Source: Candidatus Thorarchaeota archaeon (lineage in GTDB: Archaea; Asgardarchaeota; Thorarchaeia; Thorarchaeales; Thorarchaeaceae). From it: DNA of 14,108 nucleotides. Under the pieces are notes generated by a model, which was not told the DNA's origin, searched no databases, and was given only the letters and a program-made list of their open reading frames with translations. Shown here piece after piece: positions 3,577 through 6,500 of this stretch. Location of the stretch: assembly GCA_048884785.1 (NCBI GenBank), contig JBHLQM010000052.1, positions 11,961-26,068 of the forward strand, in the 5' to 3' direction. The translations under genes were made by a program, and so were the position numbers. Within the stretch, counting starts at the first letter, position 1, and each line of letters begins with the position of its first letter.

Positions 3577-6500
3577 ATGCATAGGTATAGGTTGATGGCT
3601 GTAACTGCCTTGGTGGTAATTTTACTTGTTGGAATGGATGTGCAGCGGGCTGTTGATCATCCTGAGATGAGTCTTGGTGATTCTGATGAACCGTTAGCAT
3701 TGGTTGATACCCAAGACCTAGTCCAAAGGGCGTTAGCTGAAGATCCACCTAGAACGCCTGTAAACCTACGAGAATTGGTAATTGAACTACAGAATGCCAC
3801 ACCTATAGCGAATCGAACTGACTATGATAATGACTTGCTGTATGACCCAGTCGAGAAAGTTATAGGAACCGACCCAACTCGAAACGATACAGATTCGGAT
3901 CAACTCTCTGATTACTTTGAAGTTATGAATGGCACGGACCCACTTTTGCCTGATTCCAACTACGATGGTATCTATGATTTTGAAGAGGTCAATGTGACTT
4001 TGGATTTAGATAATGACGGCGTACCAAATGCATGGGACTTTGATAATGATGGCGATGGTGTCAATGACGACCCGGACCTGTCCCCATTTGCATGCACTGA
4101 TGCACTAGATACATTTGATATCCAGCTTCAGACTGATGGAAAACCTACGCTCATCAACCTCCAACTCAAACCAGAAGATGTTGAGCATCTCAAAATTGCA
4201 TCTCAGACATGGAATTGGCCACATGATGAAGATGGAATCATGCAAGACATCGATGATTCAATAGATGATATCACAATCTCTCCTTTCCTCAGGATAACAA
4301 CAGACCAAATTCCAAGTCAATCAGCGCTGGATGAAATGCTAGTTATTTCCACTGAAGATGGATTGCTAGTAAGATTGACTCCAGTCCTAGAATATGAAAC
4401 AATTGTCGCATTCAGTGGCAGCCTTCTCTATGATGGCTCTGTTCCTTCAAATATTGATCTAACTGCTGAGTTGATCTGGAAAGTCGATGGAGCTACAGAC
4501 ATAGTTGCGAAGACTTTGAAGGCTGAAGACGACTATCTATCAGTCGGTCAAGACATGATGGCTGTATGCAATGCTACAGAAGGCGATGCACTCGCACTTG
4601 AATGGATACATATCAGGGAAAATTCAGAGAGGATACGTTTTGCGCTCAAAATATTTGACGGTCCATATCTTACTGTAGCACCTGACAACACAACCCTGGT
4701 CTTCAATGCAACAGAGTTAGGTCCTAGAGAAGAGTTTCTTTACTGGAAACAAAATGATGTGATAACTGCAGTTACTGGTGATCGATTCTTTGTAAATCCT
4801 GAAGGATTGATGATTCTGCAATATACTCCTGCTACCACATTTGAAGTAGTCGATAGAATCTACTCATCAAATACTCACCTCGTCACCTATACTGATCCGT
4901 TCATAATCACAGGGCTTACGATTGAGGAATTCTATGGTACAGAAGTTGGTGTCTTTTACAATAGTACCGACAAGAATCAGACAATAGCAGCAAGCTGGTT
5001 GATGACCTATCGATTTGCAAATAATGCTACTACTACCCTCGAGGATATACCGGGCATTCTTGCTTCTGCCAGTGTCGAAGTTTCCAATATTACTGAATCA
5101 GTTCGTGACAAATATGAGGCTCTTGTCAAACTTGGAAATGAGCTATTTCCATCAGCGATGATTGGAGTACCAGCTAATATGCACTATCCCATAATTGCAG
5201 CAATCGAAGACAGGTCCAAGGTGTTGGACCTATCAAATCTTGCTGATGGCTCGTATATCGTTAGTTCCCCATGTCAATTCAATCTACTCGGAACAGAAGT
5301 AATAACCAGTAAATCGATGAAGATGAACTGGTATAATACCTCAACGAAAATAGCAGTGGCACCAGTCGAGCTCTTTGTCGATGTCGCTTTGATGGACCTG
5401 AGTGATATAGCAGCATTGAATCTTATTGGAATGCTCTTTCGATGGGACACAGGAATCCATACAATAACCTGTATAGGTTCAGATTCTGAACTCTTTCAGT
5501 CACCAGATTCTGAGGAATTGGCAATTACGTCAAATGTACTAGTTTTCGGTCTGGAAGGATTAGTCTTTGCTGCGGAGTTAATATTCGCCTTTAAGGCTTG
5601 GAAGGAGCTCAATATCTATGTCAAGAATATGGGTGGTAATGTCGCAGAAGTAGCAAGACGTCTCCAAGCTATTAAAGACCGATATGAACTTGCAAGCGAA
5701 ATCATGGATTTAGTTAAGGACCTTGGAAAGAACAGCAAATTCTGTACATGGCTGAAGTATTCAAAATGGATCAATGCCAATAAGAACTTCAAGTTTCTGC
5801 GGACCTTCAAGGGATTCTCAAAAACTATGTTTGTTCTTGGAATTCTTGTGGATATTGGTATAGCAGTCTGGTCCGGAATTGCAATAGCTAAACAGATTGG
5901 AGGAGATGTAGGTAGAGAATTTGGTACAATATATGCAGTAACAGCAGCCATCATTGGAGGGCTAATTATTGCAATCATGACAATAATAGGGATGATACCT
6001 GTAATTGGATGGTTATTGGCTATCGTTGCATGTATTGTTGATGCTGTTGGTGGATATTCATCTAAACTGATACAGTGGCTTACGGACTGGATATTTGGTA
6101 CACCTATGCAGATGGGTTTCACACTACCAAATGCGTATCTTGACGATGTGCCCGATATAACGATTATCGACAATGAAGGTAATGGATTCACAGCAGGAGA
6201 CGCCCTAAAGATAAATGGGTCTCTGTGGGGCGTTATTGAAGCAGATGTGTTCCAAGCTTATGTCGTGAGGTATGACTATCGGTTCACAAAGACGCAAATT
6301 GCTCAGGCTCTAATCGCTTTATCATCTCTAGACCCCTATATAGAATATCTAGTACCTACGGGAACCAACGACATTGTCAATGAGATGCCATCAAACATCA
6401 CTGCGGAGGTCGAAAGCAGTATTAGTGAGCACCCCTTCAAATACGTGTATAGGTTTAAGCAAGAATTCGGTGTATTAGTGTATCCCTCTATTGCAATGAA

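Follow-up and report, generated by a model that had tools for sequence, protein, structure and literature searches.

Results

The window, by which we mean the whole 14,108-nucleotide stretch of DNA that was analysed, carries two tandem paralogous genes for giant surface glycoproteins, and the features of both are collected in Table 1. Residues are numbered here from a TTG codon at 3514; numbering from the ATG at 3577 is lower by 21. This ATG is probably the true start of copy 1 and the 21 extra residues are probably not real: the identical database protein is 2162 aa long, and the alignment of copy 2 to copy 1 begins at MHR(Y/H)RL. Translation of 3514-10065 reproduces exactly the positions and protein strings quoted in an earlier note on this DNA. 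The hydrophobic segment near the N-terminus of copy 1 is a putative signal peptide or N-in signal anchor, and N-termini across the family show a K/R-rich start followed by a hydrophobic stretch. At the other end, the transmembrane (TM) segment and its basic RWRKRR tail indicate that the second ectodomain is fixed outside. Copy 2 is 59% identical to copy 1 overall by BLASTP and was recovered by a genome search at E = 8e-95; its open reading frame extends past the end of the window.

Table 1. Coordinates of the genes and module features in the window (residues of copy 1 unless stated)
Feature	Nucleotides	Residues	Strand	Basis
Giant surface glycoprotein gene, copy 1	3577..10065	2162 aa from ATG 3577	+	ORF list, translation
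N-terminal hydrophobic segment, preceded by basic HRYR	3586..3648	25-45	+	Hydropathy scan
Helix H1 (putative first pass, outside to inside)	5509..5628	666-705; core 671-693	+	AlphaFold2 helix 666-705
Lys-rich loop, proposed cytoplasmic	5593..5823	694-770	+	Charge, sequon counts
TM2	5824..5892	771-793	+	Hydropathy; AlphaFold2 helix 759-795
Short loop KQIGGDVGRE with IGGxxG motif, proposed outside	5893..5919	794-802	+	Conservation
TM3/TM4 hydrophobic helical hairpin	5920..6057	803-848	+	Hydropathy; AlphaFold2 helices 797-826, 831-846
Amphipathic acidic helix after hairpin, into second ectodomain	6058..6099	849-862	+	AlphaFold2 helix 848-861; column profile
C-terminal TM anchor with basic tail RWRKRR	9910..10005	2133-2158	+	Hydropathy; family C-termini
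Module in tandem paralog 2	12181..12759	655-847 of ORF 10219-14106	+	BLASTP, hydropathy, genome search

Midway along the protein lies a conserved helical membrane module of ~195 residues, which recurs in giant Asgard-archaeal surface glycoproteins. Its parts follow one another in the order H1, Lys-rich loop, TM2, IGG loop, TM3/TM4 hairpin turning at G-x-I-P, and amphipathic helix; the region singled out in the earlier note, 5518-6099, corresponds to aa 669-862. The core of H1 has an acidic N-cap and a K-A-aromatic-K/R C-cap. As that note had observed, a Lys-rich stretch interrupts a very acidic protein: copy 1 has a net charge of -229, and aa 694-770, with 16 K/R against 7 D/E, are its sole net-positive part. 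The length of this loop varies over the family (43-78 aa). TM2 contains MFVLGILVDIGIAVWSGIAIA (aa 772-792) and bears a stripe of small residues, G776, D780, A784, G788 and A792, with the Asp in mid-helix. The hairpin turns at G826-M-I-P829 and includes a conserved D843, and 5920-6039 (aa 803-842) do encode 40 uncharged residues, held between E802 and D843. A kink had been placed at IPVIGW; its position is real, and it is better described as a helix-turn-helix, since one AlphaFold2 helix ends at 826 and the next begins at 831. Copy 2 retains this layout and the named motifs, with module regions 46-78% identical to those of copy 1, region by region.

Both flanks of the module have the marks of an exposed surface, as had been proposed from their sequons and Ca-type repeats. 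They match the Bacterial TSP3 repeat (PF18884) at 42.4 bits against a Pfam gathering score of 25, and scans of the whole protein with Pfam and NCBIfam returned TSP3-type families only. Sixteen DxDxDGxxD-type motifs are distributed on both sides of the module. Sequons flank it likewise, with 13 on the N-terminal side and 25 on the C-terminal side of copy 1, and the module itself has none.

We found the module in 51 sequence clusters among 1.84 billion representatives (E down to 1e-116), in 19 of the 400 Asgard genomes searched, and at 17 further loci in a related-locus search of metagenome contigs; the same kind of search over genome contigs found none. The proteins, nearly all 1,100-2,500 aa long, come from Thorarchaeota, other Asgard archaea, Methanolobus and unclassified MAGs, and tandem arrays of family genes are common. 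In other Asgard families, weak genome matches fell on ORFs of 240-370 aa, which were set aside as unrelated polytopic proteins. When short stand-alone forms were sought by a word-indexed search, the yield was a near-identical Thorarchaeota fragment and, beyond it, TSP3-repeat proteins only, and the four loci examined revealed no conserved partner gene. Scans of the module with Pfam, NCBIfam and PHROGs gave zero families above threshold, and profile searches matched it to no solved structure, the only matches being an MtrG-like 30-mer (see Discussion) and Ca-binding matches derived from the flanks. By these sequence comparisons, the module belongs to no described family. We estimate that an uncharged 40-mer is not by itself very improbable at this protein length, if composition is taken as independent; the module is more than chance because it is conserved in the 51 clusters and the 19 Asgard genomes.

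Conservation is concentrated in the helices and their turns. At the hairpin turn, P829 is conserved in 84%, G832 in 98% and W833 in 84% of the family; in TM2, 76% have D/E at 780 and 85% have G782. Among sequences that have position 797, 94% keep its Gly; in a 21-sequence alignment, no variation is seen at either Gly of QIGG or at a third Gly located three residues further along (G201 of the query). Conservation is far stronger in the intramembrane motifs than in the C-terminal anchor, of which only the hydrophobicity is kept. TM2-TM4 of a second subfamily are no more than semi-hydrophobic, and many of its members have no C-terminal anchor.

On the hydropathy scales used, which are crude, TM3 and TM4 are uniformly hydrophobic in the window's subfamily, where the summed insertion free energy for TM3 is -2 to -3 kcal/mol, and TM2 is as hydrophobic as a typical helix of a multi-pass protein. 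H1 is more ambiguous. In copy 1 it is TM-like, having an Eisenberg mean hydrophobicity of 0.6-0.77 and a low hydrophobic moment. Over the family it behaves as an amphipathic helix: the summed insertion free energy on the biological scale has a median of +7.6 kcal/mol and is at or below +5 in only 10 of 72 sequences. Its core is most often 23 residues long (33 of 68 sequences), and about 90% of cores contain at least one acidic residue, some relatives having seven (P0037, P0028). The numbers of acidic residues in H1 and TM2 are weakly correlated (Spearman 0.35), a covariation on which we do not rely because the sequences are related.

AlphaFold2, run with 75 sequences, predicted four long helices plus short ones (pLDDT 73.9, pTM 0.58), with low confidence in the loop; a first run on 21 sequences with flanks was too weak for use (pLDDT 55.5). 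The best VIA-align matches to the model are antiparallel helical hairpins over model residues 6-145, the highest at Z 7.9, which is background for helical models; four-helix TM domains of the nicotinic acetylcholine receptor (nAChR) and of a NaV voltage sensor align at Z 6.2-6.3. The hairpin matches imply that H1 runs antiparallel to TM2 and pairs with it, a packing deduced from the predicted secondary structure and from these alignments. Foldseek against the PDB gave nothing at E <= 1e-3. The stator proteins ZorA, ExbB, TolQ and PomA were among its top weak rows, at TM-scores of 0.14-0.30, and we treated them as long-membrane-helix background.

Charge and sequons divide the module by side. 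Of 34 representatives, 33 have a net positive loop and one (P0035) a neutral loop, and K+R make up 18.4% of the loop residues, compared with 5-6% of the flanks. Acidic residues cluster at one set of helix ends (E665, acidic in 80% of the family; D670, 53%; D793, 54%; E802, 46%; D843, 95%) and basic residues at the other (K694, K697, K700, K763 and K767, each 47-68% basic). With TM2, TM3 and TM4 each at least 19 residues long, a K/R-rich loop on one side and acidic helix ends on the opposite side, the module has the features expected of the positive-inside rule. In sequon counts, which are drawn from related and non-independent sequences, the loops hold 1 in 1856 residues (0.05 per 100 aa) against 11.2 expected by shuffling, whereas the 200 aa upstream of the module hold 105 against 64 in shuffled controls, and the 200 aa downstream 73 against 53. 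The genome encodes an STT3/AglB oligosaccharyltransferase, and its secreted-like ORFs carry 1.12 sequons per 100 aa compared with 0.38 in cytoplasmic ORFs, so that the loop lies under even the cytoplasmic baseline. We take both flanks to be extracellular because of the signal-type N-terminus, the C-terminal TM segment with RWRKRR, the flank sequons, the Ca-type repeats and STT3/AglB; this requires the chain to cross the membrane an even number of times.

Discussion

The analysis shows conserved sequence features, predicted helices and asymmetries in charge and sequons, and from these we infer a topology, an insertion pathway and a functional role for the module. The most likely reading, to which we give about an even chance, is a four-helix bundle in the cell's own membrane that has its two ends outside and its Lys-rich loop in the cytoplasm. 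H1, TM2, TM3 and TM4 would run up-down-up-down. During Sec-dependent export the first ectodomain (~640 aa) would be translocated; H1 would then stop transfer, aided by the strongly basic segment behind it, leaving a loop of 43-78 residues in the cytoplasm; TM2 would re-cross to the outside; and the TM3/TM4 hairpin would dip in and out, restarting translocation of the second ectodomain (~1,280 aa). Since the second ectodomain of this subfamily ends in an anchor, the protein would be stitched into the membrane both at its middle and at its C-terminus. The translocon reportedly behaves such that helices this hydrophobic partition into the membrane during Sec export (Hessa et al. 2005, 2007), and the hydrophobicity of TM3/TM4 leads us to expect the same here. 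The variable length of the loop and its low modelling confidence are what one would expect of a linker in the cytoplasm on which charge is the main constraint. Of the two models that the earlier note had offered, this one, an even number of passes through the cell's own membrane with a cytoplasmic basic loop, is the better supported, by the charge asymmetry, the sequons, the AlphaFold2 helices and the logic of Sec export, with H1 as a caveat.

H1 is indeed the main weakness of the own-membrane bundle, as its hydropathy in most family members is not that of a helix able to span the membrane on its own. The semi-hydrophobic TM2-TM4 of the second subfamily, and the many members that lack a C-terminal anchor, also speak against it. 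A sub-baseline sequon density would likewise fit an outer-face region selected against glycosylation. The bundle is probably more than a passive anchor, judging from the conservation of its small-residue stripes, its Pro/Gly turn and an acidic or polar track formed by positions 681, 684 and 688 in H1, D780 in TM2 and D843 in TM4. These residues suggest that it could promote oligomerisation, bind ions or couple signals between the ectodomains and the cytoplasm.

The layout that we propose resembles M1-M4 of the pentameric ligand-gated channels: an ectodomain, four TM helices, both ends outside, one large cytoplasmic loop and an amphipathic helix that could form the lining of an oligomeric pore. 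The alignment to the nAChR TM domain scores Z 6.2, but this is within background for helical models. The cytoplasmic loop would lie between helices 1 and 2 in the module rather than between 3 and 4 as in the pentameric channels, and unlike them the module is followed by a second ectodomain and shares no sequence similarity.

The other model that the earlier note had offered is a soluble bundle that inserts into a target membrane, of the colicin or large clostridial toxin type. In the form we considered, an amphitropic pore-forming or translocation-type bundle, like or distantly related to colicins and glycine-zipper T6SS effectors, would keep its hairpin shielded on the cell surface by basic amphipathic helices until contact triggered insertion into a target or the cell's own membrane. 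We regard this as unlikely. The layout is colicin-pore-like: in both, a helical unit of ~200 aa has Lys-rich amphipathic helices and then an uncharged hairpin of ~40 residues near the C-terminal end. The amphipathic rather than TM-like H1 of most relatives, and the many proteins without a C-terminal anchor, would suit it, and the nearest named ESM Atlas clusters are colicin PF01024 at scores of 0.83-0.87, although these lie below 0.9 and, with ~120 shared features, are rated by the tool as a lead only. In most other respects the module is unlike a colicin. The Pfam Colicin HMM does not match the window's module, and Colicin is absent among the 25 families listed for 44 members at E <= 1; when hhalign compared the profile of the module family with the ColE1 pore domain (L057:6145-6645), taken without its last 20 residues because the gene spans the start of the record, the probability was 0.09%; and tblastn against 72,556 plasmids found nothing relevant and no colicin. 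The module is predicted as four long helices rather than the ten-helix, three-layer globule of colicins, has a third hydrophobic helix (TM2), and is flanked by a large ectodomain on either side, in an archaeal protein that is exported by Sec and anchored at its C-terminus.

The T6SS effectors are the other source of this lead. The NCBIfam model of the Bfe1 family (NF053698) matches 27 of 44 members, with a best E of 1.3e-5, and that of the BTH_I2691/Tke5 family (NF041559) matches 6 of 44 at E <= 1, with a best E of 0.0012, on the predicted TM region; the Bfe1 model, searched against the window's own genome, matched the window's module alone (12.5 bits). Tke5 has been shown experimentally to be a pore-forming toxin, with TM helices packed in a soluble bundle (PMC12909789), and Bfe1 has predicted C-terminal TM regions (PMC13035841). 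The effectors share with the module small-residue-rich helices of glycine-zipper type, and the matches fall on the TM regions. Scores among the members examined are nevertheless 10-19 bits (at best 17.3 for NF041559), compared with cut-offs of 150 (NF041559) and 315 (NF053698). The Bfe1 match, which in copy 1 spans aa 713-858, is limited in most members examined to ~40 hydrophobic residues at the TM3/TM4 turn, profile positions ~266-309 of a 313-position model. The module proteins have no MIX or Hcp-loading N-terminal region, their hosts are archaeal, and they rely on Sec export and cis anchoring rather than T6SS injection.

Structure and gene context argue against the toxin reading as well. 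Module profiles found no solved toxin at E <= 10, Tke5 (9R8G) included. Colicin, Bcl-2, diphtheria T-domain, TcdB and translocator folds are absent from the Foldseek and VIA-align lists, and no large clostridial toxin, T3SS translocator or RTX protein occurs among the Foldseek PDB matches or the best 50 of VIA-align, which are generic helical hairpins. No small immunity-like membrane gene adjoins either copy or lies in the flanks of three other loci. With a Sec-type signal present, helices this hydrophobic should integrate in cis during export, and ~110 amphipathic residues are few to shield ~75 hydrophobic ones. A toxin of colicin or large clostridial type thus failed the tests that we ran, and the weak, recurrent effector matches and the sub-threshold language-model resemblance make the toxin reading a lead only.

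Quite unlikely, in our view, is a two-pass or monotopic arrangement in which only the TM3/TM4 hairpin, or TM2 and one other helix, spans the cell's own membrane, or dips into it, as a docking foot, while H1 and the Lys-rich helices rest on its outer leaflet and bind anionic archaeal lipids. Most relatives have a polar H1, the loop has amphipathic stretches with hydrophobic moments of 0.4-0.53, and its scarcity of sequons relative to cytoplasmic proteins looks as if glycosylation of an outer segment lying against the membrane had been selected against. Against this, TM2 has the hydrophobicity of a multi-pass helix and is modelled as a continuous 37-residue helix whose pairing with H1 is implied, and a hairpin spanning alone leaves it no plausible place. 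Such a protein would also move 9-17 K/R across the membrane, contrary to the positive-inside rule, and the charge asymmetry at all four helix ends better fits a transmembrane bundle.

A cell-tethered bundle that inserts into membranes or conducts ions, with a kinship by descent or convergence to glycine-zipper pore-forming toxins of the Tke5, Bfe1 and colicin types, is a long shot of much the same order. It could make the giant tandem proteins a contact-dependent device of Asgard archaea for pore formation, killing or fusion, or else a cation channel, gated by ligand or force, whose acidic oligomeric pore is lined by H1; a channel is a possible function under either of the two models. We consider it highly improbable that the module is a helical bundle entirely in solution outside the cell, with a core of unusual hydrophobicity and without any role at the membrane: the second subfamily's helices, none of which scores as a clear TM segment, would suit it, but in the window's subfamily TM3/TM4 have no polar face over 40 residues and cannot be solvent-exposed in a bundle of four helices, and the charge polarity of the bundle ends would be left unexplained.

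No known group is closer to the eukaryotes than the Asgard archaea, whose cell-surface and cell-contact machinery is, to our knowledge, almost unexplored; our literature search on giant TSP3 surface proteins of Asgard archaea found nothing relevant. The architecture would be distinct, a giant glycoprotein in which two Ca-repeat or lectin-type ectodomains would be joined by a four-helix membrane bundle with a short cytoplasmic loop. If this topology is true, it would connect a surface structure of ~2,000 aa directly and physically with the cytoplasm; if the toxin-like reading is true, it would point to an archaeal system for contact-dependent membrane attack or fusion. On either reading, the module merits its own family definition.

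A last likeness is to MtrG (PF04210), in which (Q)IGxxxGR(D/E)xGxxYG followed by a hydrophobic helix matches the TM2-TM3 loop and TM3, with a best E of 0.0011. Taken at face value, this weak match would suggest the opposite orientation, as the N-terminus of MtrG is cytoplasmic. The match covers only ~30 residues and is under the family threshold, and MtrG, unlike the module, is a single-pass subunit of a methyltransferase complex; the shared sequence is probably a convergent interfacial motif.

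A conserved helical module lies between two ectodomains of tandem surface glycoproteins

The window encodes two tandem giant surface glycoproteins (copy 1 and copy 2) that are colinear and 59% identical, each with a helical module in mid-protein. We number copy 1 from the TTG at 3514; subtracting 21 gives positions relative to the ATG at 3577, which is probably the true start, because the database entry that matches the product of copy 1 exactly is 2162 aa long and the alignment of copy 2 to copy 1 begins at MHR(Y/H)RL. The TTG start (window 3514-3576) prepends 21 residues, LLIHNVNSMTFV..., to copy 1.

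The module occupies window 5518-6099, or aa 669-862 of copy 1. The earlier note had described a Lys-rich stretch followed by a hydrophobic hairpin in an otherwise acidic protein, and we confirmed this observation: every string it quoted is present in copy 1 and retained in copy 2 (12181-12759). The net charge of copy 1 is -229, and its sole net-positive part is aa 694-770 (16 K/R versus 7 D/E). Ca-type DxDxDGxxD motifs flank the module (3 upstream, 13 downstream), and copy 1 has 13 sequons before it, 25 after it and 0 inside.

Genes in the window and hydrophobic segments of copy 1
Feature	Position	Strand	Description
M3-family oligoendopeptidase	713-2494	-	Pfam Peptidase_M3; TIGR02290 472 bits, under equivalog cut-off
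Small type I membrane glycoprotein	2577-3188	-	203-aa ORF; signal peptide, five sequons, C-terminal TM, basic tail KKSRTRAKRH
Copy 1 ORF	3514/3577-10065	+	2183/2162 aa; tandem with copy 2
Antisense ORF overlapping module	5616-6191	-	191 aa
Copy 2 ORF	10219-14106	+	1296 aa; runs past window end
N-terminal hydrophobic segment	aa 25-45 of copy 1		Hydropathy
H1	aa 673-695 of copy 1		Hydropathy
TM2	aa 771-793 of copy 1		Hydropathy
TM3 and TM4	aa 802-849 of copy 1		Hydropathy
C-terminal anchor, then RWRKRR	aa 2133-2158 of copy 1		Hydropathy

Pfam detected TSP3 repeats alone in copy 1, in the flanks. Scans of the module with Pfam, NCBIfam and PHROGs gave no match above threshold, nor did profile searches of PDB sequences. 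A weak match to MtrG (methyltransferase subunit G) recurred over the QIGGxxGRExGxxYG motif and the start of TM3 (window 5893-5960; PDB 8q3v_G, E = 0.42; Pfam best E = 0.0011, 6/44 members), and is probably a convergent interfacial motif. We class the module as a polytopic membrane domain; it represents a family not described before and is unusually placed between two giant ectodomains.

We derived the family anatomy from alignments of 21, 44 and 75 sequences. H1, with a core most commonly of 23 residues, opens on an acidic N-cap (E665 acidic in 80%) and ends in K-A-aromatic-K/R (position 696 aromatic in 87%). The Lys-rich loop is 43-78 residues long and poorly conserved in sequence; its net charge is positive in 33 of 34 representatives and neutral in one, and K+R make up 18.4% of it versus 5-6% of the flanks. 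A small-residue stripe runs along TM2, which also has an acidic residue in mid-helix (D/E at 780 in 76%; G782 in 85%), and the IGGxxG motif sits in the TM2-TM3 loop. The TM3/TM4 hairpin turns at G-x-I-P (P829 84%, G832 98%, W833 84%) and is closed by D843 (95% acidic), with an amphipathic, acidic helix after it and an NGLDVGDRI motif in the downstream domain. The C-terminal anchors are conserved across the family in hydrophobicity only; constraint on the central module is therefore much stronger than passive anchoring would require. The tail after the anchor runs to ~250 residues in members P0016 and P0048 (annotated as helix-hairpin-helix in P0016), and a PGF-CTERM-like signal closes P0041. 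Many members, in the subfamily with P0012, P0024, P0037 and P0050, have no C-terminal TM and finish with a conserved domain, ...LRAER..GNGRVYEI.F.ASDG.GGE...

The module probably crosses the cell's own membrane an even number of times

Sequons exceed shuffled controls both upstream (105 observed versus 64 expected) and downstream (73 versus 53) of the module. The window's genome encodes STT3/AglB, sequon density there is 1.12 per 100 aa in secreted-like ORFs (1.64 times that expected from shuffling) versus 0.38 (0.90 times) in cytoplasmic-like ORFs, and the C-terminal anchor bears a basic tail. Read together, these sequence features argue that both flanks must be outside, which would give the module an even number of crossings.

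The loop holds 1 sequon in 1856 residues versus 11.2 expected by shuffling, the two ends of the bundle bear opposite, conserved charges, and TM3, at -2 to -3 kcal/mol on the Hessa scale, is hydrophobic enough for translocon integration. From established translocon behaviour we infer that TM2-TM4 could not cross a membrane as soluble cargo of a Sec-exported chain. Together, these points lead us to favour a predicted four-pass topology that keeps the basic loop inside. Own-membrane passes with a cytoplasmic basic loop, one of two models in the earlier note, are thus the best-supported reading, which we hold with moderate confidence: sequons, charges and TM3 speak for it, but H1 is polar in most of the family.

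In copy 1, H1 is TM-like (Eisenberg mean hydrophobicity 0.6-0.77, low moment; best 19-residue window, +2.2 kcal/mol). Across the family it is an amphipathic, heptad-like helix with a median sum of +7.6 kcal/mol, and its core has at least one acidic residue in about 90% of sequences and up to seven in some. Polar positions 681, 684 and 688 would lie level with D780 of TM2, and D843 would be closer to the outer surface. A membrane-spanning H1 would have to hide its polar face within the core of the bundle or in an oligomer, giving an acidic track through the membrane that might have an ion-related function. A second subfamily has few sequons, often no C-terminal anchor and only semi-hydrophobic TM2-TM4. 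The four-pass topology may not be valid for every member.

An AlphaFold2 model of the module (75 sequences; pLDDT 73.9, pTM 0.58) has helices at 666-705, 710-724, 742-755, 759-795, 797-826, 831-846 and 848-861; an earlier run including the flanks was poor. Foldseek against the PDB with this model returned nothing at E <= 1e-3. A VIA-align search of 48,161 chains reached a best Z of 7.9 with generic antiparallel helical hairpins, which cover model residues 6-145; four-helix TM domains scored Z 6.2-6.3. By the tool's own statement, such values belong to the background when the model is helical. The span of the hairpin matches implies a predicted pairing of H1 with TM2.

Toxin-like and soluble alternatives

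The other model in the earlier note, a colicin- or toxin-like bundle that inserts into a target membrane, we consider unlikely. An NCBIfam Bfe1-family T6SS effector model matched 27/44 members (best E = 1.3e-5), although in most members examined the match is limited to ~40 residues at the TM3/TM4 turn, and the BTH_I2691/Tke5 family matched 6/44 (best E = 0.0012), with the match falling where that family has its TM region. In Bfe1, TM regions are predicted at the C-terminus (PMC13035841); for Tke5, pore formation has been demonstrated, and its TM helices pack in a soluble bundle (PMC12909789). In the ESM Atlas, colicin PF01024 clusters were nearest to the module (0.83-0.87, ~120 shared features), which the tool rates as a lead only. 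These leads are weak and point in the same direction. However, the Pfam Colicin model did not match the module, hhalign gave the ColE1 pore domain a probability of 0.09%, tblastn against plasmids found nothing relevant, and module profiles found no toxin among the sequences of solved structures. Neither Foldseek nor VIA-align returned a pore-former fold (colicin, Bcl-2, diphtheria T-domain, TcdB and translocator chains are absent from the VIA-align list), and no immunity-like gene was found among the neighbours. What the module has in common with Bfe1, Tke5 and colicin is probably a type of hydrophobic helix rich in small residues (glycine zipper) rather than common descent. We regard a variant with two passes, or one lying on the outer leaflet, as improbable, and a purely soluble bundle as highly so.

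Neighbouring genes, family distribution and tandem arrays

The oligoendopeptidase looks like ordinary housekeeping, the 203-aa ORF has no family match, and the antisense ORF most likely arises as a side effect of the hydrophobic coding sequence on the other strand and is not a gene.

The nearest named relatives come from Candidatus Thorarchaeota MAGs; further named members are from Promethearchaeota, Methanolobus (annotated RICIN-domain protein) and an unclassified 'bacterium' MAG. When 1.84 billion representatives were searched exhaustively with a profile, no more than 51 clusters reached E <= 1e-3; almost all are proteins of 1,100-2,500 aa that carry the module near residues 600-880. The module occurs in 19 of 400 Asgard genomes and in 12 of 85 genomes of the window's own family. 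The first ectodomain of some relatives, among them members of the family alignment A3 and P0057 (annotated RICIN domain protein), contains Ricin-type or fascin-type beta-trefoil domains (RicinB_lectin_2, E = 7.5e-31 in one A3 member; Fascin, E = 9.6e-6 in one).

Three copies are present in the window's own assembly. Another of its contigs, C79 (G000:C79, locus L054), starts with the C-terminal 403 aa of a paralog (1-1212), TM and WRKRRI tail included, which match the C-terminus of copy 1 at 71% identity; a third, full-length paralog follows (1729-8418, 2229 aa). Copy 2 probably continues on C79, and the array therefore probably comprises three tandem genes split by a contig/assembly gap. In the Asgard genomes searched, module genes are often tandem pairs (including genome:contig G332:C25, G320:C1 and G347:C23). 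The pair on G332:C25 (locus L056), which belongs to a related genome, is adjoined by a further giant ORF of 3670 aa (789-11801, - strand) with 44 sequons and five hydrophobic segments.
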